A DNA stretch of 64,000 bases from a virus (lineage: Duplodnaviria; Caudoviricetes), in IMG/VR virus record IMGVR_UViG_3300028048_001452; one strand, given 5' to 3'. Positions 4,896-24,701 of this stretch are shown piece by piece. The position numbers were made by a program, and so were the translations under genes. Under the pieces are notes generated by a model that was not told where the DNA came from, searched no databases, and saw nothing but the letters and a program-made list of their open reading frames with translations. How positions within the stretch are numbered: the stretch's first letter is position 1; each line of letters opens with the position of its first letter.

Positions 4896-4906
4896 TTAAA
4901 TTATAA

Positions 4907-4938
4907 AAATAGGAGTAGATAATATTCTACTCCTATTT
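4907..4938 (+). terminator. Intrinsic terminator
   Basis: AAATAGGAGTAGA / TCTACTCCTATTT hairpin just after the stop. Confidence 0.75.
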
Positions 4939-4945
4939 ATATAAG

Positions 4946-5269
4946 GTGATATATATGGGAGAAAATATATTAACATATGATAAATTAAAAGAAGATTATG
5001 GAGATATAAAAACTAAAGATGGAGAATATATTATCGTCAATGAAGTACCTTATTACGATTCAATATACAAAGGACATAATAAACAAGAATATTACAAAGG
5101 AATAGGTATTAAAATTGGTGATGAAATAGATTCTGATGGTTTTGTTCCTGCATATGAATTAAAATGGGATATTAATGATGAAAACAAAATACCCCCATGT
5201 GATTGGGATAAGCCAAAAGAAATTAATGAAAATGGATATTATCAAGTATTAGAAATGGATATTGAATAA
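4946..5269 (+). CDS. Hypothetical acidic protein
   Basis: 107-aa ORF, Tyr/Asp/Glu-rich, followed by a terminator. Confidence 0.65.
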   Translation: MIYMGENILTYDKLKEDYGDIKTKDGEYIIVNEVPYYDSIYKGHNKQEYYKGIGIKIGDEIDSDGFVPAYELKWDINDENKIPPCDWDKPKEINENGYYQVLEMDIE

Positions 5270-5345: not shown

Positions 5346-5379
5346 AAAATGTACGAAAATGGATGGGAGTTTTAATATT

Positions 5380-6374: not shown

Positions 6375-9300
6375 ATGGATAAAAATGATACAACATTTGG
6401 TAAATTTGATACAAGTAATAATACACAACCTATTTCTGAAACAAGTTCTACTATATCTGTAGGGAGTACAGGTAGCAGAATTAATATGAATGATAATTTT
6501 AATATTATTTCTAATGCAACAGATGGTTTAAGAGATACAATTAGTAGTATTAATAATAATCATTTTCACATTGAAGGATTTAATGAAATATTATCAAAAT
6601 TAAAAGATGTTGACCAAAAAATTGAAGGGTTAAAAAATTCACAAGATACTACTAATAGTAATGATATTATACAACAGATGGAATCTGCTATAAATAATAT
6701 CAATACAATTAAAAATGAAATTATAACTTCTGTTAGTAAACAAGTACAAGAGATTGTTCAAACAAATAAAATACAAAATACAGAAGATTATGATAATATT
6801 ATTCAAAGTGTTGCTAATAGTGTAAGTGAAACAACAAATAAATTATCGCAGTTACAAAACACTTTACAAGAAACAAAACAATCTGTTTTAGATAGTACAC
6901 AACAACAAATTAAAGAAACAAATGATGTAGCGCAAGTACATACGCAAGCTATGAATCAGGCTACGCAAGACATAAAACAAACTGCTGATAGTGCAAATAC
7001 GTTAAGTGATGCAGAGAGTAGATTGTTTGAAGAAGTACAGACTACTCTTGCTAACATTGAACAAGGAACAGGTGCAACTAGTCAACTGTTAGATTCTGTT
7101 GACGAATTATCAAAAACGGCAGTTGAAAGTATTGATAATCAATTAATACAAAGTTTACAACAATTTAAAAATGATGTAAAAAATGATATTAGTTCTGATA
7201 ATTTTTCTGAAAATACATTAAACAATTTACGTGGATTAGTTGGTAATGCCAAGTCAGTTATGTCTGCAATTTCATCTTCATTAAAAGCTAATGAAGATGG
7301 GAGTAATTTAAGCCATATTAGAGCAACACAAGAATTAAATATAAAAGTTGCTAATAATGTAAATAATACACTTAATCAATTCGCAAGTATATTAGAACAA
7401 CAAGGTAATGCTAATAGTGGGATAGCAGATATAGTAAAAGCTATTAGGCAACAATTAACTGCTTTTAACAATGATTTTAAAGAAAATAATCAGAGTCTTA
7501 TTTCTGCTACAAATAGTGCTATACAAAATGCAAAAAATGCATTCGTAACTGCGCAACAAAATGCCATAAAACCTGGTACAGATGAATATAATTCGGTAAG
7601 TAATGCTATGGCAACACAATCATTAGCTAGTATTAGTTTTAATGATTTAACAACAGGTGCTAACGACGCATTAATTAATTTGGAATATTCACAAGGTAAA
7701 AATAATCCTTGGTATCAATATGTTACAACAGGCAATTTATTAGGTAATAAAACTTCTCTCGCTAGAGGTATGGAAAATACACAAAGAGAAGGTTTTTTGG
7801 CTAGTTCTCGTTATTCTGATTTAGTAAATAATGTAATGAGTGGTAATTGGAATAATAAACAAAAAGCGCAAGGAATTGCCGAATTAGCAAAAGTTAATGT
7901 ATCTATGGGTCAATCTGTGTTAGATACTGCTAAAGGTATGAATTTACATACAGGTGGTGGCAAAAATCTAAATGCAGAAGATAAAAAAGTTTTTGAAGCA
8001 TTTACAAAACAAGTAGATAATGCATTGGGCAATTTAACTAAAACGATTAATGCAATAGAAGATTTAGACCCTGAAAACAAATCTTTGAAAAAATTACGTG
8101 AAGAACAAAAAGCGTTATTAAAATTAAAACAAAATGCTGATGATGCTAAAGAAAGTTCTTCAGCTTTGTCAAATATATTTTCTGATATAGCTAGTGGCGT
8201 AAGCAAATTAAAAAATCTACTAGCGGGCGGGTTGTCTATGCTTGGTCTAGGAGCACTTTTGTCTCCTATGGTAATGCTTAATAAAGCTATTGGGTATGAA
8301 ACACAAGAAGGACAACGTAGATACGCAGTTGCAATGAATGATTTTTCTATGGGAGCTAATTTAAACCAAGGAAGAATTAATTATATTGCAAGAGATAAAG
8401 ATTTTGAATATTGGAAAAATACAAATGGAATGATTAAGGAAGGAGAATTTCTTAATCATTATAAAACATTAACTCAAACTGTTGGTGGTCATTATAACAC
8501 AGACCCTAATGCAAATATGGAGGACATGGCACAATTAACAGATAATTCATTTGCATGGGGAAAAGTATTCAATGTAGATGCAGGTACAATAGGTACTTTC
8601 TTTAAAAATACATATAAAGATTTAGGTATGTCTGCAAGCGAAGCTACACAAGCAATGGTTAATGTAGGCCAGGCTGCTACATCAGCAGGTATTCCTGTAA
8701 AAGCATATATGACTATGATTAATAATTTATCTTCTAATTTAATTAATCATGGTGTAAGTGCTCGTCAAGTTATGTCATCAATGAATGCATTAATTAATCA
8801 TTCTCATTTACGTCCCGAAGATGCAAGTAGTATGATTACTGAAATGGCTGGTGCTAATGAAAAAATGGCTACAGATATGAATAGTAGTGCATTTTTTGGT
8901 ATGATGGCAGGTCAAGGTGGTAGTCCATTTGATTTAATTGTACAAGGATATAAGCCATATAAGGCTAATGGTAGAGTTGATGAAAATTATTATCCAATGA
9001 TGGCTCAACGTGTTATGGCAGAAGCTAATTTAATGGGTGGAATTGGCGGAGATAATGCTTTAGGTGGCATTATGTACATTGATACACTTATGAAAAGAGG
9101 TTTTTCTCAAAAAAATGCTTCTATGTTACAAGACGCAGTATCTAAAGGAGATATGAGTTTAGTACAGGATATATTGAAAAAAGCAGATGAAGAAAAAGAT
9201 GGCGGTAAACAGGCGTATACAGAAGCCATTTTAGATGCTAAAGAAAAGTTAAAAACTGCTGGTGACCAAGTATCTATTTTCCAAAAATTAGAAACGGATT

Positions 9301-12197
9301 TATCTGAAGCTCAAAAGAAATTAGGATGGGCAATTAATGAATATTTGTCTGGTCCACTTGCTAAATTCCGTGAAGGTTTTGCAAAAATATTAAATACTTT
9401 AGTAACTACTGTTGGCGAATTGATGAAAGCCATTACTGATTTTATGGGTAAACATAAAGTTGGTGAAACTGTTTCTGATGCAGTAGATACTATGAGTAAT
9501 CATAAAGTGGCGACAGGATTAGGTATATTGGGTGGTGCAACTGCCGCAGGAGCAGGTGTATATGGATTAAAGGCTTTAGGACAAAAAGCGTTAAAATCTT
9601 CTCCCTCTGTTGTTAAAAATATAGCTAAAGCAGGAAGCCATTTAGGTGGAAAAGGTGCTATTATATCAGGCGGTATGGCTTTGGTTGCTGGTGCTGCATT
9701 AGTTGGCGGTGCAGGATTAAGTGCGCTTGTGTCTATGTTCACAACAGGTGAAGCTAAAGTTCAAACAAATAATAATGCAGAACAAGATTTATCTGATGTT
9801 CAAACAATAGTTGATAACTTACAAAATTCAACAGGTTATTCTCCTGATAGTGATGGAGCACTACAACCAAGTGAAAGTAATACATATGCAAAAGAACATA
9901 CAGGTGATGAAAATAGCTATTATTATGGTACAGGATGGTCTGAAGATTATAGTCAAATTGACCCTAATTTAATAGATAAAAAAGGAAATTATAATGAAAG
10001 TTTAAGTAACGCTGAATTTATTAATCAGTCTATAGCAGAACGATATGGTGATGAAATAGAGAATTATAAAATAGCAAATCCAAATGATGTTTATGTAGAT
10101 GCAAATACAGGTGAAGCTACAGAAGATTGGGAACAACGTGAAAAAAATCTTGACAAAACAACATTAATTAATAATGCAGGATTAATCGCAGGTGGAACGA
10201 TTGCAGTTCCTGGTGCAGCTGCATTGGCAGTTGCTAAAAAATATAATTTGATTAATAAAGATAGATGGGATGCATTAAATAATGTTGCAAAAAAAGGCAA
10301 ATGGTGGTCAAGATTTGCCAAATTAGGTAAATTTGGCGGTCCTCTTGGAGCTGGGATTACTCTTGCAGACGAAATAATTAACGAATTTAGTGACGAAAAT
10401 AGCGATAACTATAGTATGGGACAACACGTAGCAAGAGTTGCTTTTAGAGGTGGCGGTGCAATTGCAGGTGGTCTAGCAGGTGCAAAATTAGGAGCTTTAG
10501 CAGGTTCTTTGGTTGGCCCAGCTGGTACTATTGTTGGAGGATTTTTAGGTGGTACGGCAGGTGCTCTAATTGGTGGATTTGCAGGAGAAGGATTACAAAA
10601 TTCATCTGTTGGTGATGCATTAGGAATTTCAGATAAATCTGCCATTAAAACTGCCCATGATTCTTATGCTGCAAAAGTAAAACAATCAGCTAGTTTATAT
10701 GGTGATGCAACAAAGAGCATAGTTTCATCTAATGATAATAGACAAAAAGCAGCTGCGCGTGCTCTTTCTGAACATGGAATTAAATTGGAAGATTTAACAA
10801 ATGACCAAGAACAATACATTAATAATGTATATAATGATTTAAAGTCTCGTGGATTGGCAGATGAAGTTGCTGCGTTTGTTGCAGGATTAGCTGCAGGTAC
10901 AGTAGCAGATAAGCAAAAAAATGATGCAGAATATGCTTTTAATAATGATGAAATATCAAAAGGCAAAGGAATGAAAAAAACGGCAGAGGTTGCAGCTAAT
11001 GAGTGGATGACAGATGAACAAAAAGAACAAGGATTTGAAAGTTTAGACCCAAATGAATTATCAGGGCATGATACAACTTGGTCTTTGAAACTCGGAGGTA
11101 TGTATTTAGAAGATGGTGGGAAAGATAATAATCTTTCTATAGAAGAAAAGAAACAACGCTTAAGTTTGTTAGGTCAAATTATGGGTGGAACGAATGCTGG
11201 TTCTGGTGAAGATAAAATTGCAAATGCTATTATGAATGATAGCGATTGGACAGATATAGCCGGTCATTTAGTTTCAGGTCCATTTAGAAACGGAGATAGA
11301 GCAACAATAGCTAATATATTCCAAGATTCTAATTTAGAAAATTTTAGTGATGAAGATATTAATAAAGCATATAATATGGCTTATAATGAAGTTGCTTATG
11401 TTTCGTCTACACAAAATGAAGATGCCATAAAGAAAAATATGGAAAGCATTGTCTCTACTACGCCTAATCCTAAAGATGTTGGAGACAAAATGCAACTCAA
11501 CAAGCCAAATCCTCCTGATAATCCACATCAAGATACGCAACAAACAACGTCACAAAATAAAGACCAAACATTAGAAAGTACATATGCAGATGCAGAAAAA
11601 AATATTATGAATATGCAGAAACAAATTGGTGAATTGGCAGGATTAAAAGACAAAGAATTGTTAAATGATAGAGTTGCTACAGGTCAATTGATTTTGGATG
11701 GTTCTACTGCTTTATCTTCAAATGGACGTATGTTATCTTTACGTGGATTAAGAGATAGGTTTAGAGCATTTTCAGGTGTTCATGATAAAGATTTATTTGG
11801 TGTTAGTTTAAAAAATGGTGCTTATAGTGGTGATGGCAAATATTTGACAAATTCAGGTCCATCTGATATTGGTAAAAAAATGGATAAAGAACAAAAAGTA
11901 GATTTTAAAGCTATTAAAGCTAGTTCTAGGTATCGTATGAGTACAGAGGGATATGATGGAGCACTTCAAAAAATGGCAGAACAGTATAAATCAGACCACG
12001 AGCAACAAGAAAAAACCTATGCAGAAAATAGAAAACGTCAAGAAGAATTAAATAAAGAAAAACAACAAATGGAAATGGCAAGTATAAATATTAATAATAT
12101 TGTTAATAATTACTTTAAAAATGTTCCTAAACCGCAAGCTAATAATACTGCTTCAGAAGAAGAACGTAATCAAGCACAGGCATTAAAAGAAGCATAA
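6375..12197 (+). CDS. Tape-measure-like protein 1 (1940 aa)
   Basis: Coiled-coil N-terminus, conserved core shared with paralogs 2 and 3, Gly/Ala-rich hydrophobic zipper segments; sits after the chaperone. Confidence 0.75.
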   Translation: MDKNDTTFGKFDTSNNTQPISETSSTISVGSTGSRINMNDNFNIISNATDGLRDTISSINNNHFHIEGFNEILSKLKDVDQKIEGLKNSQDTTNSNDIIQQMESAINNINTIKNEIITSVSKQVQEIVQTNKIQNTEDYDNIIQSVANSVSETTNKLSQLQNTLQETKQSVLDSTQQQIKETNDVAQVHTQAMNQATQDIKQTADSANTLSDAESRLFEEVQTTLANIEQGTGATSQLLDSVDELSKTAVESIDNQLIQSLQQFKNDVKNDISSDNFSENTLNNLRGLVGNAKSVMSAISSSLKANEDGSNLSHIRATQELNIKVANNVNNTLNQFASILEQQGNANSGIADIVKAIRQQLTAFNNDFKENNQSLISATNSAIQNAKNAFVTAQQNAIKPGTDEYNSVSNAMATQSLASISFNDLTTGANDALINLEYSQGKNNPWYQYVTTGNLLGNKTSLARGMENTQREGFLASSRYSDLVNNVMSGNWNNKQKAQGIAELAKVNVSMGQSVLDTAKGMNLHTGGGKNLNAEDKKVFEAFTKQVDNALGNLTKTINAIEDLDPENKSLKKLREEQKALLKLKQNADDAKESSSALSNIFSDIASGVSKLKNLLAGGLSMLGLGALLSPMVMLNKAIGYETQEGQRRYAVAMNDFSMGANLNQGRINYIARDKDFEYWKNTNGMIKEGEFLNHYKTLTQTVGGHYNTDPNANMEDMAQLTDNSFAWGKVFNVDAGTIGTFFKNTYKDLGMSASEATQAMVNVGQAATSAGIPVKAYMTMINNLSSNLINHGVSARQVMSSMNALINHSHLRPEDASSMITEMAGANEKMATDMNSSAFFGMMAGQGGSPFDLIVQGYKPYKANGRVDENYYPMMAQRVMAEANLMGGIGGDNALGGIMYIDTLMKRGFSQKNASMLQDAVSKGDMSLVQDILKKADEEKDGGKQAYTEAILDAKEKLKTAGDQVSIFQKLETDLSEAQKKLGWAINEYLSGPLAKFREGFAKILNTLVTTVGELMKAITDFMGKHKVGETVSDAVDTMSNHKVATGLGILGGATAAGAGVYGLKALGQKALKSSPSVVKNIAKAGSHLGGKGAIISGGMALVAGAALVGGAGLSALVSMFTTGEAKVQTNNNAEQDLSDVQTIVDNLQNSTGYSPDSDGALQPSESNTYAKEHTGDENSYYYGTGWSEDYSQIDPNLIDKKGNYNESLSNAEFINQSIAERYGDEIENYKIANPNDVYVDANTGEATEDWEQREKNLDKTTLINNAGLIAGGTIAVPGAAALAVAKKYNLINKDRWDALNNVAKKGKWWSRFAKLGKFGGPLGAGITLADEIINEFSDENSDNYSMGQHVARVAFRGGGAIAGGLAGAKLGALAGSLVGPAGTIVGGFLGGTAGALIGGFAGEGLQNSSVGDALGISDKSAIKTAHDSYAAKVKQSASLYGDATKSIVSSNDNRQKAAARALSEHGIKLEDLTNDQEQYINNVYNDLKSRGLADEVAAFVAGLAAGTVADKQKNDAEYAFNNDEISKGKGMKKTAEVAANEWMTDEQKEQGFESLDPNELSGHDTTWSLKLGGMYLEDGGKDNNLSIEEKKQRLSLLGQIMGGTNAGSGEDKIANAIMNDSDWTDIAGHLVSGPFRNGDRATIANIFQDSNLENFSDEDINKAYNMAYNEVAYVSSTQNEDAIKKNMESIVSTTPNPKDVGDKMQLNKPNPPDNPHQDTQQTTSQNKDQTLESTYADAEKNIMNMQKQIGELAGLKDKELLNDRVATGQLILDGSTALSSNGRMLSLRGLRDRFRAFSGVHDKDLFGVSLKNGAYSGDGKYLTNSGPSDIGKKMDKEQKVDFKAIKASSRYRMSTEGYDGALQKMAEQYKSDHEQQEKTYAENRKRQEELNKEKQQMEMASININNIVNNYFKNVPKPQANNTASEEERNQAQALKEA

Positions 12198-12212
12198 AAA
12201 GAGGGTTGTAAG

Positions 12213-15200
12213 ATGGCTATTGTAAAAGCAAGCAAAGTCCAAAGAGATATAAACGATAAAATTTTAGTAACTTCTGCTGGATTAAAAGAAGTACAAAATC
12301 AAAAAATTGTAAAAGTTAAAGAATTAATAAAAGAATTTGATAAAACACAAGATGCTTTGAAAAAAGAAGAAATAGAAGCACTTATACATCAAATAGATGT
12401 TTTAGGTCAGGTAATTGCATACTATAACAATTTAAATGATATAAATAAAAATGGATACATTACTCATAATATAAAAAAACAAAATGATTTTGTGAATGAT
12501 TTGACAAAAGCCATACAATTAATTGAAAATGCAAATGGAGCAGGGAGTATAAATTCATTAAAAAAAGATTTAAATAGAGTATTATTATCTAGTGGTGAAA
12601 ACAAGTATATATTTAAAGGAATAACAAGATTATCTGAAAGAATTAAAAATTATGCAGATAATATAAAAAAAGAACAATTACAAGCACAAATTTCTTATTT
12701 GCCAAATACAAGTGATATTGGTATTTTATCTGCACTTACTACTAATCAATTAGAACAATTTTATAAAGTTCGTACTTCTAATGATTTAAATACACAAGAT
12801 TCTGTTAATTTGATGGATACAATTAAAGAAAAATACGTAGACTTAATTCGTTTACAATTAGATAGAATCCATCATATTCAAAATAAGATACAGGACGAAA
12901 AGGGTAAGACAGAAGTAGAAATATTACAAAATCTTGCGAATAAATTATTTCCGAAATCAGATGAAAAAGAACAACAAAAAATTTTAATAGATGATTTAGA
13001 TGATTTTAAAAAAAGAATAGCTAGTGCAGTTGAAGATTTAAATACAAAGTTTGACAAGGATTTAGAAAATGATAGTAATGATAATTCATCAAATTTTAAA
13101 AAATATAAAGACGCTATTACAAAAATAAATGATTTTTTTGTAAAATTTGATGAAGAAACAAAAGGAAGTAAAAAGAAAAGAGATATTGTTCAACAAGAAT
13201 ATGAACAATTGTTAGGCAGTTATAAAGAAAGCATAATAACAGTACTTGCTAATAAAGATTTGATGGAAGATATATCTAAATTATCTTCTGAAGGTAGGAT
13301 TATTAATTTTGTTAAAACTTTTACTAATGGTAGTTTAAACAATGTTTCTTCACCTGAATATCAATATGCGCATTCTTTAGTAAAACAACAAAGAATGAAA
13401 ACAGTATCTAAATTATCTTTTAGTAATCAAAATTTGGATAATGTCTCTTCTTTTTTAAAAATTAATTCAAATAATAATCATTTATATAATGGTGGTAGTA
13501 TAAGTTTCGCTAATGATGTAGATAATGTTCGTAGAACTAATACAATGTTCAATCTACAAATGAAAAGTTTTTTTAAAAATAACAAAATCACTACAAACGA
13601 AAACTATAGTAATGATTTATTAATACCAATTACAAGTGGAGCTTTAGAAGTTACATCTGTGAATAGAAATATGTTGTCAAAAGTTAATAAAAATAGCTTA
13701 TCATATTTGCTATTTACAAATGATAAAGAAAAAGCTAATTTACAACAAATTTCTTTTTCTGTAAGTCAAACAATAATGCAGTTAAACAAATTGTTATTTG
13801 CTTTTTACGATTTAGACAAAAAACCAAATGAATATTATCAGTTAAAAGAAGAAAAAGAAGCATTAGAATATGAATTGAAACAAATTAATGAATTACAACA
13901 ATCATTAGAAGGTATGAAACAGGCATTACATTATGTAAAAATGTTTAAAGACAAAATGATGAATATATTATCAGGCGGTTTAACATTTTTAGGTATAGGT
14001 GCTATTTTGCATCCAATGCAAATGTTAATGGGTGTTGTAAACAGGTCAAAAGAAAATGGTCAACTTAGATATAATATTGCTTTGACTGATACCGCTTTTG
14101 GTATAACTCCTAGTCAGTCAAATATAGATGATTTAAGTTATTATGCACCATCAAACTATTTTAATGCTACGTATGGACAAATTGGATATGGTACAGTTGG
14201 AGAAATATATCGTGGATTACAGTCCACTGTTGGTGGACAAAAAGGCAATAGTCCTGAAGAAAATCGTAGAGATACTGCATGGTTATCTAAAAATTTAGTT
14301 CCTGATAAAGAAATGTTTGGCGATATTGGTGGAATGGAACAGTTTTTAAAAACGTTTTATCGTGATATGGGCAATTCTGCTAATGAAGCATTAACTAAAT
14401 TAAGAACTGTTGAAAGATTTGCACAAACGCAAGGTATACCTGTTTCTCAATTGGTATCAATATTTAATAGTACAAATGAAGCTATGCGTTCAGTAGGTGT
14501 TAACGCTGATAAATATTTGGATGCTATGACTTCTCTTGTTGGAGTAAATGGTATGCGCGTAGAAGATGCTAATGCCTTAGTTACATCTACTGCAAATAAC
14601 GCAAAAACTTTTTCTAATGATTGGGCAAGAAATATTTTTTGGGGATTATGGAATAATCCAAAACAATCAACATTTGACACTTTGTTATCAGGTGTAAAGT
14701 CGCATGATATGCACGGAAATCCAATAGATTCGTATTATGATAATTTAGTTGACCGTATGTTTTCTGAACAAAATTATTTTGGTTCTCGTTGGGGCGGTTT
14801 AGGAACTGCATTAGGTCAAACAGATGCTTTTAGTCATATATTAGACCAAGGATATACAATTAAACAAGCACAAGAAATTATGCAAATGAAGGAACAAGGT
14901 CGTGATGAAGAACTAAAAGCAAAATTAAAAGGTTGGGATAAGTTAAAAAATGACCCATTGGCTTTACCACACACAACACAAGATTATACAAAACAATTAA
15001 GTCAAGCAGGAGAACAATTAAGTGAATTTACAAAAATTCAAGCTACATATATTAAATTTTTGAACGATTTGTCATTTAAATTTGATAAAATATTATCGCC
15101 TGAATTAACAAAAGGATTAAAAGCAATAGAAAAAATAATAGCTATGTTTACAAATGCTATGGCTGAATTAATTCGTCAAATTGGAGGAATTTTAAATTCA

Positions 15201-18071
15201 CCTTTAGGTAAAATGTATACCAATGCGTTTAATAATAGTCCATTATTAACAATTGCAGGTACAATTGTTGGGTTAGGTGCTCTTAGATTTGGTGCAGGAA
15301 AAGTACTCAAAGGTGGATTTGGTGCATTTAAAAATGTTTTATCAGGTAAGTCATCAGGTATTTCAACAGGTAAAGCTATTGCTACTGCAACGGCGGTAAC
15401 TGCCGGTGTTGGATTAGGAGCATGGAATCAATACGAAGGATTACAAGAACAAGCACAAAAAATGGGAAATAAAGACCAAAAAGGTCAATTAATTGAAATG
15501 TTCCAAAATGGTACTGCAAAAGCTACATTAATAATTGGACCAGGTACACAGGATAAAAAAGATTATACTTTGATTAAATATGCGCTTGCATTAGCATTAG
15601 CAGGTGCTAGTGTAGCAACGATAGCTAGTATATTAGGTAAAATTTCAACAAAAGGTAAAATAAAACATCAAGGAATTTTAAGAAGAATAAAACATTTGTC
15701 TAGTGGTTTAAATAAACAAGTAAAAGATGGTAAAATACCTGAAAAAAGTGAACGATATAAAAAATTAGAAGAACAAAAGAAAAAAATAGAAGCAGAAGGT
15801 AAAAAATTAAAAAGAAAAAAATGGCAACAATATCAAAGAGAGAAAAGATTATACGAACAACAAGTAAAACAAGCAAAAAAAATAGAAGCAAAAAACAAAG
15901 CTATAATGGAAAAAGCTAAACGATTAGAGCAAATGAGAATTAATCGAAGAAAACAATTATATAATTCTATGAAATGGGCAAAGAGATTAAAATATGCTAA
16001 AAAAGGTGGTTTACTAGCTTTAGGTGGAGCATTTTTAACTAGTTTATTTGATAAAGATGTTCAAGATAATAGACCAATAGGAGATTTTGTTTCTGGTTTA
16101 GCAGGTGGATTTATTGGATATGCTTTAGGTGGTTCAAAAGGAGCTGCATTAGGCGCAGGAATTGGTGCAGGTGCTATGGAATTGTTGCGTACAAATGATG
16201 TAAAAGCACAAAATGCATTAAATAATTATGACAAACAAACTACACAAGATAGCTTGGCAGGGTTAGTTCGTGAAGAACCAACACAACAACAAACACAAGA
16301 CCAGCAAAAACAAGCTAGTCAACAAGATAAAACATCTAAAAAACAATCTGCTCAATACAATGCTTATGTTAAAGCCTATCAACAAGAAACAGAAGCATAC
16401 AATAAATCAAAAGAAATGGAAATTCAAAATCTTTCTGCGAATAAAACTTCTTTTACAATTAATGAATCGAATGAAACATATACAAAAGCAAGAGATGCGG
16501 TTTTAGAAAAACATGGCATTAATTGGTCAAAAGTAGCAGACCATGAAAAGCGAATTTGGCAGAATAGTTATGAAAGCTTCTTGCAAATTTTTAGAGATAA
16601 TAAAAAGGCGTTAGAAATGGCTGCGCAAGCACTTATTAAAATTCAATCTATGGCAGGTGGTGGAACAGGCAGTATTTATACAAATGCTTCTGCTATTGAA
16701 TATGGTAATGCTTGTTATGCCAATGCCCCTGCTGACGTAAAATCATGGATTGATGAAGCAAGTGCAAAGTGGAATGTACCAAAATGGTTAATAGCAGGTG
16801 TATTACAGATTGAATCTGGAATGAACAAAAATCCTGCTCATAGTACTGCTGGAGCAGTTGGTATAGCACAATTTATGCCTAGTACTGCTGCTGGATTTGG
16901 TTTTGACCCAAATGACCCTCATGCGTCTGTATTAGGTGCTGCGCATTATTTAAGGAATCTTCTTGATAAATATGGAGGTTCTACTTTTAAAGCAGTATTG
17001 GCATATAATAGAGGATATTATGGTGATGATTGGAGAGATTTACCTGACCAAGTTGATTATGCTAGAAAATTTCATATGATTGATAGCAATAATAATCCGG
17101 TTCCTGAAACAGAACAAACGGCAGGGTATGTACCTATATCTGCTAATATTAGTCCGAGTTCATATTCTAATAGTGGTGGTATATATAGTGGGGATTTAGG
17201 TGTTGATTTTTCTCATTTAAGATGGAGTGGATTCGTAGCAGATAAAGGATGGGACCATAGTTATGATGCACATGCAAATTCTGCACAATATATTGCCATG
17301 GATATTGGTAGATTAACTCCAAAAGCGAAACAAAGACTAAATTTGTTTACCCAATTATATGCAAAATATAGTGGTGGTGGCACATTAGAATGGAACGTAG
17401 CTACATTAGGGCATGACCCTGGTACGCCACATAGTACAGGAAGAAAAATAGATATGGAATTGGGCGGAGTAGATGTAGGTGCTATAATAAGAGCTGGTAA
17501 TGAAGCCCATGTTGGTGTAGTTAATGAAGCTGGAACTCATTTTGATATATTGTTAGAAGGAACAGGAGGTTACGAAGGAACACTTTTAACACAACAGTTT
17601 TCTTGGGATGATGCAAATTCTAATGGTAGTTCAGGAGCAAATCCAAAATTAAATCTTAATTTGAATTTTGAAGATATAAAACCGAAAACATTAAAAGAAC
17701 AATGGGATGAAAATTTAAGAAAATATAAGGTGGCGGTAGGAAACGGTAAAGAAGTTCAAGGTAGAATTATTAATGGTTTATATGTTGACCCTAATCAGAA
17801 ATTTCAATCTATTGAAGAAATAGGTAAAGAAATTAGAGAAAAAAATATTAAACAATGGGGAAAATTATCAGATGATATAGATACCGTAGAACAATCGAAA
17901 CAATTTCAAGGATTAAAAAACCAAGAATCTATAGACCATGAAAAAATTCAAATGCGTTTTGATAAGAAACAAATGCGTTCGGATAAAATAATTGCTTTTA
18001 CTACAGAAGTTAAAAACACCATTCAAGATTTTTATGAACCATCTAGCTTAAAAATTTCATTTAATGGTTAA
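12213..18071 (+). CDS. Tape-measure-like protein 2 (1952 aa) with SLT lytic transglycosylase and M15/LAS-type peptidase domains
   Basis: IAGVLQIESG..AGAVGIAQFMPSTA..LAYN (SLT, ~16730-17060); HSTGRKID..HFD (Zn LAS-like, ~17320-17550). Confidence 0.8.
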   Translation: MAIVKASKVQRDINDKILVTSAGLKEVQNQKIVKVKELIKEFDKTQDALKKEEIEALIHQIDVLGQVIAYYNNLNDINKNGYITHNIKKQNDFVNDLTKAIQLIENANGAGSINSLKKDLNRVLLSSGENKYIFKGITRLSERIKNYADNIKKEQLQAQISYLPNTSDIGILSALTTNQLEQFYKVRTSNDLNTQDSVNLMDTIKEKYVDLIRLQLDRIHHIQNKIQDEKGKTEVEILQNLANKLFPKSDEKEQQKILIDDLDDFKKRIASAVEDLNTKFDKDLENDSNDNSSNFKKYKDAITKINDFFVKFDEETKGSKKKRDIVQQEYEQLLGSYKESIITVLANKDLMEDISKLSSEGRIINFVKTFTNGSLNNVSSPEYQYAHSLVKQQRMKTVSKLSFSNQNLDNVSSFLKINSNNNHLYNGGSISFANDVDNVRRTNTMFNLQMKSFFKNNKITTNENYSNDLLIPITSGALEVTSVNRNMLSKVNKNSLSYLLFTNDKEKANLQQISFSVSQTIMQLNKLLFAFYDLDKKPNEYYQLKEEKEALEYELKQINELQQSLEGMKQALHYVKMFKDKMMNILSGGLTFLGIGAILHPMQMLMGVVNRSKENGQLRYNIALTDTAFGITPSQSNIDDLSYYAPSNYFNATYGQIGYGTVGEIYRGLQSTVGGQKGNSPEENRRDTAWLSKNLVPDKEMFGDIGGMEQFLKTFYRDMGNSANEALTKLRTVERFAQTQGIPVSQLVSIFNSTNEAMRSVGVNADKYLDAMTSLVGVNGMRVEDANALVTSTANNAKTFSNDWARNIFWGLWNNPKQSTFDTLLSGVKSHDMHGNPIDSYYDNLVDRMFSEQNYFGSRWGGLGTALGQTDAFSHILDQGYTIKQAQEIMQMKEQGRDEELKAKLKGWDKLKNDPLALPHTTQDYTKQLSQAGEQLSEFTKIQATYIKFLNDLSFKFDKILSPELTKGLKAIEKIIAMFTNAMAELIRQIGGILNSPLGKMYTNAFNNSPLLTIAGTIVGLGALRFGAGKVLKGGFGAFKNVLSGKSSGISTGKAIATATAVTAGVGLGAWNQYEGLQEQAQKMGNKDQKGQLIEMFQNGTAKATLIIGPGTQDKKDYTLIKYALALALAGASVATIASILGKISTKGKIKHQGILRRIKHLSSGLNKQVKDGKIPEKSERYKKLEEQKKKIEAEGKKLKRKKWQQYQREKRLYEQQVKQAKKIEAKNKAIMEKAKRLEQMRINRRKQLYNSMKWAKRLKYAKKGGLLALGGAFLTSLFDKDVQDNRPIGDFVSGLAGGFIGYALGGSKGAALGAGIGAGAMELLRTNDVKAQNALNNYDKQTTQDSLAGLVREEPTQQQTQDQQKQASQQDKTSKKQSAQYNAYVKAYQQETEAYNKSKEMEIQNLSANKTSFTINESNETYTKARDAVLEKHGINWSKVADHEKRIWQNSYESFLQIFRDNKKALEMAAQALIKIQSMAGGGTGSIYTNASAIEYGNACYANAPADVKSWIDEASAKWNVPKWLIAGVLQIESGMNKNPAHSTAGAVGIAQFMPSTAAGFGFDPNDPHASVLGAAHYLRNLLDKYGGSTFKAVLAYNRGYYGDDWRDLPDQVDYARKFHMIDSNNNPVPETEQTAGYVPISANISPSSYSNSGGIYSGDLGVDFSHLRWSGFVADKGWDHSYDAHANSAQYIAMDIGRLTPKAKQRLNLFTQLYAKYSGGGTLEWNVATLGHDPGTPHSTGRKIDMELGGVDVGAIIRAGNEAHVGVVNEAGTHFDILLEGTGGYEGTLLTQQFSWDDANSNGSSGANPKLNLNLNFEDIKPKTLKEQWDENLRKYKVAVGNGKEVQGRIINGLYVDPNQKFQSIEEIGKEIREKNIKQWGKLSDDIDTVEQSKQFQGLKNQESIDHEKIQMRFDKKQMRSDKIIAFTTEVKNTIQDFYEPSSLKISFNG

Positions 18072-18112
18072 AATTAAAAATTATTTCATATAATAATATC
18101 AATAAAAATTTC

Positions 18113-18133
18113 TATATTTTTAATAGAAGATAA
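18113..18133 (+). promoter_or_regulatory. Candidate late-promoter motif
   Basis: TATATTTTTAATAGAAGATAA. Confidence 0.45.
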
Positions 18134-18170
18134 TTAAATTTTTCATATAGGAAGGATTTGACATAATATT

Positions 18171-18584
18171 ATGGCAACAAAGAATAAAAATGATAAGATT
18201 ATTTCTGAAATGCTTGCAGATTTGATTGACCCAAGTGAAGAAACAGAAATTGTAGAAAAGTATGGTAAGAAATGGGCTATGCGTCCAATTTCTTCACAGG
18301 AATATCTTGATGCATTGAAGGAAAGTCAAAGTTATAAGCAGGATGACCTTACACGTATGTTTGGTATGCAGATTAGTATTTTGAAACACGCACTTGTTTC
18401 TGTAAATGGATTAATTCTTACAGATGAACAGAAGAATAAAATCCTCAATGCTATTAGTCCTGCCGTTTTAACAACACTTTATAATGAATTTGAAGCAATT
18501 CGTCATAAGAGTGATGATGAAATTGCTAAAAAAGAAAATGAAGTTACAGAAGAAACGATAGGTAATACAACAATTGATGCATAA
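18171..18584 (+). CDS. Tail assembly chaperone, short (G-like) form
   Basis: Paralog of the N-terminal half of 5380-6351; lies between tape-measure genes. Confidence 0.6.
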   Translation: MATKNKNDKIISEMLADLIDPSEETEIVEKYGKKWAMRPISSQEYLDALKESQSYKQDDLTRMFGMQISILKHALVSVNGLILTDEQKNKILNAISPAVLTTLYNEFEAIRHKSDDEIAKKENEVTEETIGNTTIDA

Positions 18585-18606
18585 TTAAACAATCATTAAT
18601 AAAAGC

Positions 18607-18640
18607 GTGGTTCTGATTAAGATAGAACCACTTTTTTTTT
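18607..18640 (+). terminator. Intrinsic terminator
   Basis: GTGGTTCT...AGAACCAC hairpin plus T9. Confidence 0.8.
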
Positions 18641-18680
18641 GTATTTTTTTAATAGATACTATATGAAGTTGGTGAAAATT

Positions 18681-21600
18681 ATGGAAAATGCTACAATATC
18701 TAATACAGAGTTATATGCAGTAAAAGATAAGTTTGATAATGTATCAAAAGAATTAGAAAAAATCAACAAAAATTATTCTGATTTAATTACAAAAATAATT
18801 AAAAATAATAAATTAGAAGAATTACAAAAAATATTTGATATAATCGAACATTTTAAAAAAGAAAGAAAAGAAATTTTAGAAGTATTATCTAAGCCTTTTT
18901 CTTCAGAAACAGTAACAGTTGCAATGGATAACATTGATAGTTATAGTAAGAATGTTCTTCAAATGTTATCTAAAATGCAGGAAGTTTCTTTTAGTTTTAA
19001 AAATAGTACAGATGAAAGTATACAAAAAATTGTTGATGAATTAAACAATATTAATGTTGAATATTTAAAGAGTGTAAACGAACAAACAAAAATTTTAGAA
19101 GATTTGTTAAACACAGGTGTATCTGAACAACAAAAACAACAAGAAGCACATGAAAACTTCATCAATATTTTATACAAAGTAACTTTAAATATTAAACAAA
19201 GTTACAATGCAGAACAAACAAATAGATTAGTTGATATTATCAATAGCTTAGATGATAAAACACAAGAAATAGGTGCTAGAAATAAATTTGCATCACAAGC
19301 TCGTACTAGATTGACGAATTTAATTAAAAATATTGATAGTGATATAAAATCAAATATTAAGCAACGACCATATAGTGAAGGTTCTAAAAATTTATTAAAC
19401 CAACTTGATTTTATTAGAAAATTAAAATTAAATGATACAGGTAATGTAAAAGATTCAGAAAACATGGGCGAAATTTTAATTAATTTAGCCCAAGTAATGC
19501 AAAAAGATATTGTAGATAAAGGAAACAATTTAGAAAATAATTTAAACTCAACAAATGAATTTTCAGATTATAAAGACATATCATCGTATTTATCAAACGA
19601 AAAATTAGATAAATATATTAATGAAATAACTATATTCACGCAACAAAATACACAAGCAAATAGTGATGATAAAACTATTACAAATATAAGTGAACAAACA
19701 ACACAAATTTTAAAAAATGCTTTATCTGAAAAAAATGAGATTGCTAAAAAATTAGTTGATAAAAGTATTCATCAATTTGTAACTGTATATAATAAGAAAA
19801 AAAATAGTGATGATAAAACAGATTATTATAATTTCCAAATGTTACAAATGCAAGGAGCATTTACAGGACAAATCAACTCTAATTATAATAATTTCCGTTA
19901 TCATAATTTGTATGGTGGCATCTTTTCTAAAGACAAGAATTTAAATCAACTTTATAACAATTATGCAAGAAATACATTATTGTATAATCAAGAAGTAAGT
20001 AAAATTTCAAAAGAAGAAAGTGACTTAGCAGAACAAACAGGAATAGATTCCTCTAAATATTTATTAGAAGATATAAAAAATGATAGATTTTCAAATCCAT
20101 TAAAAAATAATAATGATAGTTTAATTCAATTATCACATGAATTTAATAGGAAAAATTTGCCCAAAGGTAATAAACAAGATATTATATCTGCGAAAGAATT
20201 AAGTTCTGTTATTGGAGAAGCTATTCATCGTACTTATCAACAAATTTATAGCAAGTCTCGTTTTGACCCTGATTCTAAATTGTTGAAAGCATTATATCAA
20301 CAAGCAAAACAATTAGAAGAAGAAAAACAAGATTTAGATGATAGTATTAAAAACGCAGAATTAAAGAAACAACATGATTTATTTAAAAATATAAAAAGTG
20401 TTAAAGGATTTTTTACAAAAGCCTTGGCTATGATGGGATTGGGTGGATTATTTTCATTTCATAAATGGTTTGATATGGTAAAAGACCGTGCAAATGAAAA
20501 TGGTCAAATGATGTATTCAAATTATTTGGCAAATGCTTCTATGGGAGCACCTATGTCTCAAAATGCTCATGATTTAGTATTTAATATGGGACAAGAATTA
20601 TTTGAAAAATCATATGGACAAATTGGATTTAATGTTCCATCAACAATGTATCAAAATTTAGCTAGTTCTGTAATGAATCAACCAGGTAGAACAGGTGCAG
20701 ATAAAGCGTCTGATATAATGGCTTTTACAAAAGCACTTGTATTACCATCACAAATATATGGTTTGGATAACGGTACAATAGCAAGTGGAATCAATGCCTT
20801 TTATTATCAAAATCGTATGTCTACAAAACAAACCATTGATATGATGATGCAAGTAATTGGTGATGCAAATAAGGCTCAAATACCTGTTAATAGATATATG
20901 GGACAAATATCACAATTGGTTAATCACTATCGTCAATTAGGATATAGTGGTAAACAAGTTGTAGATAATATGGGTTCTTTAATTGCAGATGGATATCGTA
21001 TGGAGGATTCTGCTTCATTTGTTGGTCAAGTTATAGGTGCGCAAGGAAACTTTTCTCAAAATAAATATAATTCTATATTTTCTGTTTTGGGCGGTGGAGC
21101 TGCGAACATGTGGCAAGGTATGTTCGCAAATTTAAAAACCCATGATAGATATGGTAATCCATACGCAGATAGACAACATTATATAGGTTCACAAATGTAT
21201 TCTCGTGTACGTATGGTTACAGATATGTTTGATAACCCTGTGATGAAACAATTTGGTGTTCATGCAGCTGCTAGTATGATTGGCGGTATGAACATGAAAG
21301 AAACGCAGGTATTAATGAACGATGTAGAAAATGGAAATTATGATAAATTAGCAGAACACTTAGAAGGTTCAAAAAATGATGAATTAGCAAAAAATAAAAA
21401 AGCTACAAACGCAACCAAAGATTTTACAAAACAGTTAGAACAAGCATCAAATCAATTATCTGAAGTAGATAAAAATAAATCTATGATGTTGGCTTCTGCT
21501 AATAAATTATCTGATTTATTGGTTGGCAATAATGAAGGTATGCAACAATTTGAAAATATAATTGTAGAAGGAATTAAGTTAATTACAAATGCTATGGCAA

Positions 21601-24600
21601 GTTTACTTGCATTAATTCCTGAAATTAAAAAATTTATTGAAGAATCTCCAACGTTAACAAAAGCATTAACGTTTGCTTCTCAAAATCCTTTAACTGCATT
21701 AGCATTAGCAGGATTAGGATTAGGTGGTATAAAAGCATTTGGTAAATTTACAGGTAAAAAAGTATTTGAATATGCAAAAAATAAATTAGGACATCATAAT
21801 GATGTAGACCATGAACAATTAGCAGAAGAAAATGTAAAACAACAAGTAGAATCTGAAAAACCAAAAACAGAATTGAAAAATGGAAAAGGATTTTTTGGCA
21901 ATTTAAAAAGTGGATTAAATAAATTAAAACCATCAAGGAAAACATTATCTTCTATTGGAAAAGGATTAAAAGGATTTCGTGGAGGTGGGATGTTAGGAAG
22001 CATTTTAACTGCCGGTGCAATTGCAGGGACAATGTTATTAGGTTCTAAAAACGTTTCTGCCAATGCTTCAAATAATGAGGATAATGCAAAGCAACAAGAA
22101 GAACAAGACGATGAACAAAGTATCAATAGTATGTATACAATGTTTAAGACTGGTAATGCAAAAGTCACTTTTTATAATAAAGACGGTAAATTAATTGATA
22201 TTACAGGTAAAAATCAATTAGATAGTCTATTAATGCAATATGGAACAAATTTGTTTGGAGTTACAATAGCTACGATTGGAATTTCTTCGATTGGAAAATT
22301 AGCATATGATAAATATAAACAGATAAAAGATTTAAAAATGCCAAAATTCCCGAATGTAAAAATGCCAAAAGAATTATCAGAAAAAGATTTACCAAAAGTT
22401 GATAAATTAGCAAATCCACAAGAAACAAGAGCTGGTATGTCAACAATGGATGCAGTATTAACTGCCATTGGATTAAAATCAGAAATGGGTAATACCAAGA
22501 CAAAAAGTAAGAACAAAACAAAAACATCTGGTAAAGAGGAAAAACTGCCGAAAAAAAGTGGGGGTGCTTTATCAAAGTTATTAAATAGATTGATGTACAT
22601 TGGCGCATTTGCAGGAGAGGTTTTATCTGATGATGATAGGTCATTTGGACAAAAAGCAGTAGCAGGTGGAATAGAAGCAGGTTCTATGTGGGCAACATTT
22701 AAATTATTGGATAAAACTGTTGGAAAAATACCAATTATTGGTAAACCGTTAGCATTTTTATTGGCTGGAACTAACTATTTGTCAATGGTATCAGAAAAAT
22801 TAAAAGCCTTGGCTGGTGTTCAAGCAAAATATAAAGAAGGAAATGAAGAATTTCTTGATAAAATGAATGACCAAACAGGATTGACAGGTGCTAGTTTTGA
22901 ACAATTAATTAATTCTGAAACAACACAAGGAGAATATTTTAGGTCATATTTAGAAGCAAATGGAATAGAATATGGTGATTTAAATGAACAAGAAAAACAA
23001 TTTTTTAAATTACAGATAGATGAATTGGCATTTTCTCAACATGGTGTTGCAAAGGTATTAGCTTATGCAATACATGCATTACAAGTTGCAAGGACAACAG
23101 GTAATTTTAATTTAAATGGGAATGAAAATGGAAATAAGCAATTAACAGAAAAAGGAAAAGAATATATTAAAAATCAGCTTGAAGCATTTTTCCCTGGCGA
23201 TGATAATGAAATTACAAATCTTGATATGGCGATTCATACATATGTTTATACACAAGATTATGTTAATGAACATGAAAGTGAATTTGATTATGATAAAAAA
23301 AGTGCCGCTTATGCAACATTACGTTATTTAAAACATCGTATTGTTGAATTGAATGGCGGTGAACCATATGAACTCACAGATGAAGATAATGTTGGATTGT
23401 TAGGCGAAAAATCATATATAGTTAATGACCCATATGATAATCCTCTAGGTCGTTCTGGAAGCAGTGAAGAATTTACTGAAAAATTATCTAATCTAGCAGG
23501 TTATATTGGATATATCCCTGCCGAAGAAATTAAGGAAGGTATTGGAAATACTGCTGAAGAAGATGAAGAAATAGCTAAAAGCGCAGGTTTTTATGGCGCG
23601 GCTATGGGAAATTATGAAGATAGTTTAACGAAACAATTAATTAATGATAATAATCCAGAATATGTAGAAAATAAGTCAATTCAACAAAATTCAGCTCCAA
23701 ATGTTTCAAATACTGGAGCATATGCAAGTATGGCAGAACAAGCTAAAATGATTTCTCAATTAACTGGTTTACCAGCAGATGTAATATTTGCGCAATTAGC
23801 ATTTGAAACGGGTCAAAATCCATCTGATATGGCATATTCTGATAAAATTCATAATTATGGTGGGACTATTGTTGATATGGGGCATGGAAAAAATGATAGT
23901 GGATTTGGTATTTATGTAAACAATCAAGAGGGCGCAGAAGCATATGTAAAAGGTACAGTCCCAGTTAGAGAACAATTACCACAATTAAAGGAAGCAATCG
24001 CACAAGGCGATTTGAAAAAATATGTACATTTATTAAAATATGGTATGGAAGAGTCTGGTAAAGGAAATTATCAATATTTTACTGGCGATGAAAATGAATA
24101 TTTAAATGGTATAATGTCTTATTTATCATTAGCTCATAAATTAGGATTGAATGGTGTAACACCTAATGGTACATTTGATTTTTCAAATTATACTCCTAGA
24201 ACTTTAAAAGAACAAGCAGAGGAAAATTTACGTAAATATAAAGTTGCAGTTGGTAATGGTAAAGAGATGCAAGGCGCTATAATTAATGGATTATATATTG
24301 ATACAAATAGACCTTTTCAATCTGTAGAAACTATAGGTGCTAAATTACGTGCTTCATTTTTAGATGGTTCTTATGATAATGACCCAAATAAAGTATATCA
24401 AGAAATGGAAGCAATTAATAAAAATAATATTAAAAAAATGGTAGAAAGCACCACACAACAAATTAAACAAACACAAGAACAACAAAAAGCATTACAACAA
24501 AGTGCGCAACAAACAGTTGAAATGCAAAATAAGCAAAAGCAAGCAGAACAAACAAATGTATGTTCGTTGAATGTTATGGGACAATTAAAACAAGGAATTA

Positions 24601-24701
24601 AAGAAACAGATGTGTTAGAAACAATTACCAAAATAGCACAAAAATATGGTGTTACAACAGATGTAAAAGCACAAGATGTAGTATTACCTTCAATGGCTTA
24701 A
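18681..24701 (+). CDS. Tape-measure-like protein 3 (~2006 aa) with GH73 glucosaminidase-like domain
   Basis: Shared TMP core; TGLPADVIFAQLAFETG..HNYGG..YFTGDENEY (~23720-24130); ATG 18681 with GGTGA RBS. Confidence 0.75.
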   Translation: MENATISNTELYAVKDKFDNVSKELEKINKNYSDLITKIIKNNKLEELQKIFDIIEHFKKERKEILEVLSKPFSSETVTVAMDNIDSYSKNVLQMLSKMQEVSFSFKNSTDESIQKIVDELNNINVEYLKSVNEQTKILEDLLNTGVSEQQKQQEAHENFINILYKVTLNIKQSYNAEQTNRLVDIINSLDDKTQEIGARNKFASQARTRLTNLIKNIDSDIKSNIKQRPYSEGSKNLLNQLDFIRKLKLNDTGNVKDSENMGEILINLAQVMQKDIVDKGNNLENNLNSTNEFSDYKDISSYLSNEKLDKYINEITIFTQQNTQANSDDKTITNISEQTTQILKNALSEKNEIAKKLVDKSIHQFVTVYNKKKNSDDKTDYYNFQMLQMQGAFTGQINSNYNNFRYHNLYGGIFSKDKNLNQLYNNYARNTLLYNQEVSKISKEESDLAEQTGIDSSKYLLEDIKNDRFSNPLKNNNDSLIQLSHEFNRKNLPKGNKQDIISAKELSSVIGEAIHRTYQQIYSKSRFDPDSKLLKALYQQAKQLEEEKQDLDDSIKNAELKKQHDLFKNIKSVKGFFTKALAMMGLGGLFSFHKWFDMVKDRANENGQMMYSNYLANASMGAPMSQNAHDLVFNMGQELFEKSYGQIGFNVPSTMYQNLASSVMNQPGRTGADKASDIMAFTKALVLPSQIYGLDNGTIASGINAFYYQNRMSTKQTIDMMMQVIGDANKAQIPVNRYMGQISQLVNHYRQLGYSGKQVVDNMGSLIADGYRMEDSASFVGQVIGAQGNFSQNKYNSIFSVLGGGAANMWQGMFANLKTHDRYGNPYADRQHYIGSQMYSRVRMVTDMFDNPVMKQFGVHAAASMIGGMNMKETQVLMNDVENGNYDKLAEHLEGSKNDELAKNKKATNATKDFTKQLEQASNQLSEVDKNKSMMLASANKLSDLLVGNNEGMQQFENIIVEGIKLITNAMASLLALIPEIKKFIEESPTLTKALTFASQNPLTALALAGLGLGGIKAFGKFTGKKVFEYAKNKLGHHNDVDHEQLAEENVKQQVESEKPKTELKNGKGFFGNLKSGLNKLKPSRKTLSSIGKGLKGFRGGGMLGSILTAGAIAGTMLLGSKNVSANASNNEDNAKQQEEQDDEQSINSMYTMFKTGNAKVTFYNKDGKLIDITGKNQLDSLLMQYGTNLFGVTIATIGISSIGKLAYDKYKQIKDLKMPKFPNVKMPKELSEKDLPKVDKLANPQETRAGMSTMDAVLTAIGLKSEMGNTKTKSKNKTKTSGKEEKLPKKSGGALSKLLNRLMYIGAFAGEVLSDDDRSFGQKAVAGGIEAGSMWATFKLLDKTVGKIPIIGKPLAFLLAGTNYLSMVSEKLKALAGVQAKYKEGNEEFLDKMNDQTGLTGASFEQLINSETTQGEYFRSYLEANGIEYGDLNEQEKQFFKLQIDELAFSQHGVAKVLAYAIHALQVARTTGNFNLNGNENGNKQLTEKGKEYIKNQLEAFFPGDDNEITNLDMAIHTYVYTQDYVNEHESEFDYDKKSAAYATLRYLKHRIVELNGGEPYELTDEDNVGLLGEKSYIVNDPYDNPLGRSGSSEEFTEKLSNLAGYIGYIPAEEIKEGIGNTAEEDEEIAKSAGFYGAAMGNYEDSLTKQLINDNNPEYVENKSIQQNSAPNVSNTGAYASMAEQAKMISQLTGLPADVIFAQLAFETGQNPSDMAYSDKIHNYGGTIVDMGHGKNDSGFGIYVNNQEGAEAYVKGTVPVREQLPQLKEAIAQGDLKKYVHLLKYGMEESGKGNYQYFTGDENEYLNGIMSYLSLAHKLGLNGVTPNGTFDFSNYTPRTLKEQAEENLRKYKVAVGNGKEMQGAIINGLYIDTNRPFQSVETIGAKLRASFLDGSYDNDPNKVYQEMEAINKNNIKKMVESTTQQIKQTQEQQKALQQSAQQTVEMQNKQKQAEQTNVCSLNVMGQLKQGIKETDVLETITKIAQKYGVTTDVKAQDVVLPSMA

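Follow-up and report, generated by a model that had tools for sequence, protein, structure and literature searches.

In the textbook picture, the tape-measure protein (TMP) of a tailed phage is the product of a single gene, and this product is homo-oligomeric in the tail tube, where it sets the length of the tail. The oligomer is generally held to be a trimer, and the usual ruler scaling is ~0.15 nm per residue. The Pb2 protein of phage T5 and the TMP of mycobacteriophage TM4 have embedded muralytic domains, together with hydrophobic segments that presumably insert into the membrane. The expectation of one TMP gene per genome does not hold for the DNA described here, a 64,000-nucleotide stretch from a virus of the class Caudoviricetes (IMG/VR record IMGVR_UViG_3300028048_001452; to be referred to as the window). 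Three tandem genes in positions 6375-24701 of the window encode three TMP paralogs (T1, T2 and T3), and three paralogs are also present in five relatives. T1, T2 and T3 are bona fide, selected TMP paralogs in a tail module, and they may well work together in one tail.

All features described below are on the + strand. T1 (6375..12197, 1940 amino acids (aa)) and T2 (12213..18071, 1952 aa) are intact open reading frames (ORFs). The ORF of T3 opens at a TTG at position 18639 (2020 aa). The ATG at 18681 agrees with the starts of the orthologs and has GGTG upstream, and T3 from this ATG (18681..24701) has 2006 aa. The BLASTP alignment of T1 and T2 has 27% identity over 609 aa (E 2e-51), that of T2 and T3 26% over 749 aa (E 2e-33), and that of T1 and T3 25% over 323 aa (E 2e-18). 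These similarities are far above chance, and the three proteins are true paralogs. The ORFs and the pairwise alignments confirm the three tandem, length-matched paralogs that an earlier note on this DNA had claimed.

A collinear core of ~450 aa is common to the three proteins, covering residues 591-1040 of T1 (8145..9494), 561-1010 of T2 (13893..15242) and 553-1003 of T3 (20337..21689), with the coordinates taken from a core-block profile. The three genes are intact in this contig, and none of the copies is degenerate in the six genomes. The motifs L..LG.G, E.GQ..Y, (G/Q)IPV, R.ED(A/S) and L..A..Q.S, which had been read from the letters before, are present and collinear in the alignment, and MF..G.AK is found by direct reading. 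Each copy begins with a Gly/Pro-poor N-terminal arm of ~550-600 aa (0-7% Gly+Pro per 100 aa), followed by a Gly-rich hydrophobic segment, the 450-aa core and more hydrophobic Gly/Ala segments. In most of the 15 proteins examined, the core has such Gly/Ala-rich hydrophobic segments on either side. The C-proximal part of each copy contains an exchangeable peptidoglycan-hydrolase cassette, located 150-450 aa from the C-terminus, and then a C-terminal module.

The core block has one match among 50,697 GenBank phage records, gp183 of phage G, with E values of 2e-12 for T2 and 9e-18 for T1, and this is the one relative from a cultured phage. This protein is annotated as the TMP of phage G and was found by virion proteomics (PMC12484599). 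A match of the core-block profile to a 2893-aa representative has an E value of 1.6e-51. Concordant matches below threshold are observed to the Pfam families TMP_3 (7 of 15 core blocks, with E 0.0014 for T2) and PhageMin_Tail (2 of 15), and to TIGR01760. A comparison of the core block with the PDB sequences gave no meaningful match.

The orthologs in the five other metagenomic genomes (L005, L007, L008, L009 and L017), some of them on contigs of 333-500 kb, have diverged to 25-68% identity. A word-indexed search found T2 orthologs with 99%, 68%, 46%, 41% and 28% identity. A scan of viral contigs with patterns from the paralog alignment confirmed no relatives, the patterns being poor. The gene order is long tail-assembly chaperone (TAC-L), T1, T2, short tail-assembly chaperone (TAC-S), T3 and tube initiator, and it is kept in L007, L005, L008 and L017. 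The order T1, T2, TAC-S, T3 is the same in L009, where T1 is cut at the contig end (at least 1946 aa), T2 has 1969 aa, and only the start of T3 is present. Positional 1:1:1 orthology follows from the BLAST scores and from the best match of each paralog. All three paralogs are conserved 1:1:1 in the relatives.

A search of 1.84 billion proteins with a profile from 15 core blocks gave 111 representatives at E < 1e-10, and a tree of 125 core blocks was calculated with FastTree. T1, T2 and T3 are located in separate clades (support 0.91-0.97, 0.95 and 0.99, respectively), and these jointly form one clade (support 0.95). The 59 tips of the joint clade are split 20/21/18 among T1, T2 and T3, with none left over. 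Therefore, the triplication predates the divergence of the whole clade, and all the copies have been retained.

The outgroup lineages have a single TMP (L010 with 2261 aa, L012 with 2300 aa, and phage G). On the other hand, a sister clade (support 0.98) has two tandem TMPs of 3.4-4.4 thousand aa, found in contigs L011, L013 and L014. The two proteins have 4423 aa (with SLT) and 4393 aa in L011:1-23182, where an IS605 OrfB gene is located shortly downstream. In L013:3668-26468, a 550-aa TAC-L-like gene is followed by TMPs of 4266 aa (SLT) and 3948 aa (M23), and in L014:2705-13654 a cut a-type gene is followed by a TMP of 3649 aa (NlpC/P60, C39) and an initiator homolog. In the sister clade, the first-copy and second-copy subtrees mirror each other, with a1 corresponding to c (~4.0-4.4 thousand aa) and a2 (3676-3725 aa) to b (3422-3649 aa). 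Because this duplication is independent, multiple TMPs arose at least twice in the family, with co-resident copies of similar length both times. If the usual scaling of 0.15 nm per residue applies, the tails would be 0.5-0.65 micrometres long in the sister lineage and ~290 nm in the triple-TMP phage.

The lengths of T1, T2 and T3 are 1958, 1961 and 2015 aa in L007, 2028, 1900 and 1949 aa in L005, 2037, 1867 and 1713 aa in L008, and 2248, 2165 and 2155 aa in L017. The three paralogs differ in length by 3-19% within a genome, and each of the L017 paralogs exceeds its counterparts elsewhere by ~200 aa. For the five complete sets, the mean within-genome standard deviation of the length is 69 aa, as compared to 111 aa under permutation (p = 0.018). 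The p value is 0.033 when the close relative L007 is left out. The length correlations in the five sets are strongest for T2 and T3 (r = 0.84) and for T1 and T2 (r = 0.78), with r = 0.41 for T1 and T3. The earlier note had suggested following the three lengths in related phages. Here the co-variation is modest, in genomes that are few and related.

The enzymatic domains differ among the three paralogs. T2 contains a lytic transglycosylase (SLT) domain at residues 1513-1601 (16749..17015), with a match to PF01464 at E 1.3e-17 (63.9 bits, cut-off 21.3) and fold matches with the program VIA-align to Slt, MltC, MltF and MltE (Z scores 8.9-10.0). A putative LAS-fold zinc peptidase-like domain follows at residues ~1662-1804 (17196..17624). 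It has no Pfam match, and nothing was found by sequence in the PDB. Its VIA-align matches are moderate, to ShhN (Z scores 7.2 and 6.6), Hedgehog (6.4), LdcB (5.3), VanX (5.3), MepA (5.2) and Ply500 (4.9), and further to LysB4 and the RB49 peptidase, with a lowest Z score of 4.2. The domain has an H-x6-D...H motif (H1740-x6-D1747 and H1776), whose His and Asp residues are the same in all 4 sequences compared.

T3 contains a candidate GH73-like (N-acetylglucosaminidase-like) domain (23706..24158), whose match to the Pfam family Glucosaminidase (PF01832) has an E value of 0.004 and is below the cut-off (18.2 bits, cut-off 30.2). A search against PDB profiles places FlgJ on top, at a non-significant level. 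The best Foldseek matches include FlgJ, Tge2, Auto, AtlA and the Thermotoga glucosaminidase, with probabilities of 0.21-0.93 and E values of 0.1-0.9. It is a conserved feature of the T3 clade, with a putative catalytic Glu residue that is invariant in 7 sequences.

T1 has no Pfam family at E <= 0.01. The region of residues 1683-1790 is occupied by an NlpC/P60 domain in L005 (L005:3905-9991) and by an M23 domain in L008 (L008:3816-9929), with nothing recognisable in T1 of the window or of L007. Different peptidases at one position in T1 orthologs represent cassette exchange inside a tape measure. Moreover, the SLT domain is on T3 rather than T2 in L008, and on both T2 and T3 in L017. The different inserts that had been proposed for the same C-proximal position of the three proteins are confirmed, with none recognisable in T1, SLT and a putative LAS-fold domain in T2 and a candidate GH73-like domain in T3. 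The divided enzymatic cargo is real and modular.

The C-terminal modules are of two types. T2 (17679..17840; KTLKEQ...G.IINGLYVD...FQSIE) and T3 (24198..24353) have a common module, with 61% identity over 71 aa, and the T3 copy is matched by a hidden Markov model (HMM) of the T2/T3 module. This shared module of ~55 aa is located 100-170 aa from the end and has the consensus P-K/R-T-L/I-K-E-Q ... G-x-I-I/V-N-G-M/L-Y-V/I-D ... F-x-S-I/V-E. With the HMM it is found in all T2 and T3 orthologs and in two basal representatives of the T1 clade, and the core T1 proteins are without it. T1 has a module of its own (11622..11864; ATGQLILDG..ALSSNGR.MSLRG..SGV.D.DL.G), with 12 invariant columns in 10 T1-clade proteins.

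The shared module is more similar between paralogs of the same genome than between orthologs, with identities of 48% versus at most 33% in L017, 55% versus at most 44% in L005, and 43% versus at most 35% in L008. The core block shows the opposite trend, orthologs being more alike than same-genome paralogs. A recent gene conversion of the module is not supported, as the nucleotide identity between T2 and T3 is 69% and the third positions match in 23 of 37 identical codons. With this nucleotide identity, the similarity of the two modules is old or selective. The pattern points to an old conversion (concerted evolution) or to co-evolution with a shared docking partner. A complex prediction for the three C-terminal regions, with T1 as the partner, has a score of 0.13 as compared to a mark of 0.32, which speaks neither for nor against an interaction.

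There is one chaperone set, with one G form and one GT form, for the three TMPs. TAC-L (5359..6351, 330 aa) precedes T1, and TAC-S (18171..18584, 137 aa) is located between T2 and T3. The N-terminal ~100 aa of TAC-L have 30% identity to TAC-S (E 1e-12), and the chaperone gp181 of phage G is homologous to both the TAC-L N-terminus (E 6e-7) and TAC-S (E 1.4e-6). In addition, single-TMP relatives have a separate second chaperone ORF, and its product is similar to the C-terminal half of TAC-L (E 1e-12 to 2e-29). This makes TAC-S the G form only, and TAC-L the fused GT form. In all six genomes, the gene for the G-only chaperone is placed between T2 and T3. In the single-TMP relatives the G and T chaperone ORFs are adjacent to each other.

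A tail tube initiator-like protein of 686 aa (24765..26825) is encoded directly 3' of T3, with a match to PF23980 of 28.5 bits (cut-off 27). PF23980 is also matched 3' of T3 in L005, L007 and L008, where the matches are weak or faint, and the 581-aa gene at this place in L017 has no Pfam match. The initiator is followed by a 1670-aa protein (26853-31865), which matches phrog_14367 in four stretches (E 3e-95) and has a weak baseplate match. This protein is probably the hub or spike, on which the C-termini of the TMPs are likely to dock.

A terminator-like hairpin, with a 9-pair stem and a T9 tail and followed by a TTTGTATT motif (18607..18655), is located between TAC-S and T3. Hairpins whose stems differ in sequence occupy this position in L007, L005, L008, L017 and L009, and a T-run and TTTGTA come next in L007, L005, L009 and L017, and not in L008. 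With this conserved hairpin in front of it, T3 may start a transcription unit together with the initiator and hub genes. The pattern TTTGTATT...TAG was considered as a general promoter and rejected, having only one site in the window. Contigs from the RNA libraries of four bovine-gut studies contain pieces of all three TMP genes, which is compatible with transcription and is neither proof of it nor a ranking of the genes. In three of the four RNA-library contig sets, the bins over TAC-S (17669-18970) have the top summed contig depth, a quantity that cannot rank genes. There is a hint here that the G-form chaperone is abundant.

We estimate the probability that T1, T2 and T3 co-assemble in one tail at roughly 0.55. 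The reading is based on the single chaperone set, initiator and hub, on the module of T2 and T3 that evolves in concert, on the long and strict retention of the three genes, and on the coupling of their lengths. The split chaperones TAC-S (G) and TAC-L (GT) would coat all three TMPs during tail assembly, and the C-termini of the TMPs would dock on the complex of tube initiator and hub. The three proteins would then lie together inside a single tail tube, as a mixed bundle of rulers. Contraction would expel them together, delivering the SLT, LAS peptidase and GH73-like wall-cutting activities. The stoichiometry in such a bundle could be either one of each TMP per trimer or the result of stochastic mixing. 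An obligate asymmetric heterotrimer, with one T1, one T2 and one T3 on a three-fold hub and two kinds of docking module (that of T1 and the one common to T2 and T3), is a tentative proposal that we hold to be rather unlikely. If it were true, the tail length would be read from three rulers kept in step by selection, and each chain would bring a different wall-degrading enzyme, at a fixed 1:1:1 dose. A strict 1:1:1 heterotrimer is attractive since TMPs are held to be trimers. However, it is unproven, and it cannot be general.

Several observations weigh against a shared tail. The two-copy sister lineage, and a pair of TMP paralogs in Staphylococcus jumbo phages (see below), indicate that three copies are not required, which weakens the idea of a trimer with one of each. 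The C-terminal module of T1 is its own, and that of T2 and T3 is missing from it, so that the hub ends of the three proteins are not equivalent. The spread of lengths in L008 reaches 19%, or 324 aa (2037 versus 1713 aa). The segments are also less well matched than the totals, with cores out of register by up to ~170 aa (N-arms of 693, 592 and 520 aa in L017). The length co-variation rests on 4-5 related, non-independent genomes, and stabilising selection on tail length would produce it as well if each paralog had tails of its own. Moreover, the hairpin parts T3 from T1 and T2, and their expression may differ. The same-tail 1:1:1 hetero-oligomer of the earlier note thus stands in part. The paralogy of the TMPs, the 1:1:1 retention of the genes, the co-varying lengths and the differing cassettes are in its favor, and the two-copy sister lineage, the 19% spread in L008 and the non-equivalent C-terminus of T1 are not.

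The stabilising selection just mentioned would fit tails that are each a homo-oligomer of one paralog. The phage would then produce three kinds of virion with equal tails and different cargo, as bet-hedging against host walls. Homotrimeric TMPs are, to our knowledge, the only arrangement known so far, the cassettes do differ and are shuffled among the paralogs, and equal lengths are expected if tail length itself is selected. The C-terminal module of T1 could nucleate separate assemblies, and T3 is placed behind a conserved terminator. On the other hand, the docking module common to T2 and T3 evolves in concert, and the two proteins would compete for the same hub sites, so that mixing is the default expectation. 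There is only a single G/GT chaperone set, with one initiator and one hub, and strict retention of three copies in six diverged genomes is less expected if they are interchangeable. We consider separate homo-oligomeric tails unlikely. It is improbable, too, that only one paralog is the ruler and that the other two are TMP-derived ejection or lysin cargo proteins in the tube or baseplate, their similar size being due to descent and to the need to fit. The 324-aa difference in L008 and the distinct C-terminus of T1 could be explained in this way, and the pair in a Staphylococcus jumbo phage is annotated as a tape measure and a 'tail lysozyme' (PMC10638138). However, all three proteins keep the complete TMP architecture of N-arm, core and hydrophobic segments. 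No degenerate copy is found in six genomes, and the lengths co-vary, the L017 trio being longer by ~200 aa throughout.

Two further arrangements are much harder to reconcile with the locus. The three proteins could be placed end to end as a serial ruler, with a total of ~5,900 aa and a tail of roughly 0.9 micrometres, and the gene order could mirror their order along the tail. The very long tail of phage G is served by one TMP of 2893 aa, which can be counted for long rulers of this kind. However, the parts of a serial ruler need neither equal nor co-varying lengths, each copy here has its own full layout of N-arm, core and C-terminal module, and the T2/T3 module is at the same distance from the end in both proteins, which suggests parallel docking rather than a head-to-tail chain. 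We regard a serial ruler as very improbable. The proteins could also be packaged in the head as internal or ejection proteins, like the SLT-bearing gp16 of T7, since the SLT region has PHROG matches to 'internal virion protein with endolysin domain' and fold matches to the SLT domain of T7 gp16. This similarity is confined to the SLT domain, however, and the genes are in the tail module, between gp181-type chaperones and the tube initiator, with a core homologous to the tape measure of phage G. Packaging in the head is hardly credible for these proteins.

Co-assembly in one tail, or the production of several tail types, would have consequences beyond this locus. A clade of the largest known phages has long kept three full-length, diverged rulers (two in the sister clade), with their lengths in step. 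This implies that a ruler can be a hetero-oligomer, or that one burst makes several kinds of tails, and in either case tail assembly would follow a new principle. If either reading holds, it would also be a new way of delivering combined cell-wall enzymes. Annotation is concerned as well, since the extra TMPs are at present called 'tail lysin' or hypothetical.

The window is part of a 103-kb IMG/VR contig with a G+C content of ~30% and a rated completeness of ~21%, which corresponds to a genome near 0.5 Mb. The carrier is an uncultured giant myovirus of roughly 0.4-0.5 Mb from the ruminant and pig gut, and near-identical DNA is present in bovine-gut and pig-gut metagenomes from 12 studies. A megablast search with the 18-kb region gave no match among GenBank phages. 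The gene order is tail sheath, two tube-like paralogs, an island of ~7 kb, TAC-L, T1, T2, TAC-S, T3, tube initiator, the 1670-aa protein and a baseplate wedge protein (phrog_6). The sheath is located upstream in the contig (721 aa; phrog_2839, E 4e-37). The adjacent tube-like paralogs (L016:11805-13127, in the contig upstream of the window) have 210 and 225 aa and both match phrog_985. Doubling of the tube gene is common to single-TMP and triple-TMP phages, and is therefore unconnected to the number of TMPs. The ~7-kb insert separates the tube genes from TAC-L, and part of it is in the window (211-5269). Its genes encode a transposase (phrog_506), two methyltransferases (one CmoA-like, the other a C5 DNA methyltransferase) and a hyper-acidic protein of 83 aa. 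TAC-L directly follows the sheath and the two tube genes in L008 and L005, and L007 has the methyltransferase part.

A search of the literature on two, three, multiple, duplicated or paralogous tape measures, and on megaphage tape measures, found no paper that discusses the phenomenon. The statement in the earlier note that there is no described example holds to this extent. However, published Staphylococcus jumbo phages carry a tandem paralog pair that has gone unremarked. In vB_SauM-UFV_DC4, UFVDC4_00260 is annotated as 'tail tape measure protein' (M23) and UFVDC4_00259 as 'tail lysozyme' (PMC10638138). The paper on this phage does not treat the two as paralogs or as a joint ruler, and neither is named in its text among the virion proteins found by mass spectrometry (PMC10638138). 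We confirmed that the two genes are paralogous and adjacent, encoding proteins of 1989-1990 and 1961-1962 aa with a near-identical C-proximal module, and the pair is also present in PALS2, Madawaska and MarsHill. The question raised here is testable in these cultured phages.

Like the locus in the window, the Staphylococcus pair consists of giant paralogs that lie side by side and are matched in length, with lytic domains that differ and a C-proximal module that is near-identical. In comparison, it belongs to a TMP family that is unrelated by sequence (no tblastn match), and it has two copies rather than three. The sister lineage has the same core family, the same chaperone and initiator context, matched lengths and a different enzyme in each copy (SLT versus M23 or NlpC/P60), with the differences that its duplication is independent, that there are two copies, and that these are about twice as long. 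Pb2 of T5 and the TMP of TM4 also have peptidoglycan hydrolase domains in the C-proximal part of the ruler. They are homo-oligomers from a single gene, however, whereas the enzymes here are spread over three co-resident paralogs, with cassettes swapped among orthologs. Phage G shares the core family of the TMP, and its chaperone gp181 is homologous to both TAC-S and TAC-L. The order of its tail module (gp178-gp189) is the same as well, with the sheath, two tube paralogs (gp179 and gp180), the G/GT chaperones, a TMP with lysin, and the baseplate (PMC12484599). The two modules differ, however. Phage G has one TMP of 2893 aa where the window has three paralogs of ~1950 aa, and its GT chaperone is produced by a programmed frameshift, whereas the G form and the fused GT form here are separate genes, with the G gene placed between T2 and T3.

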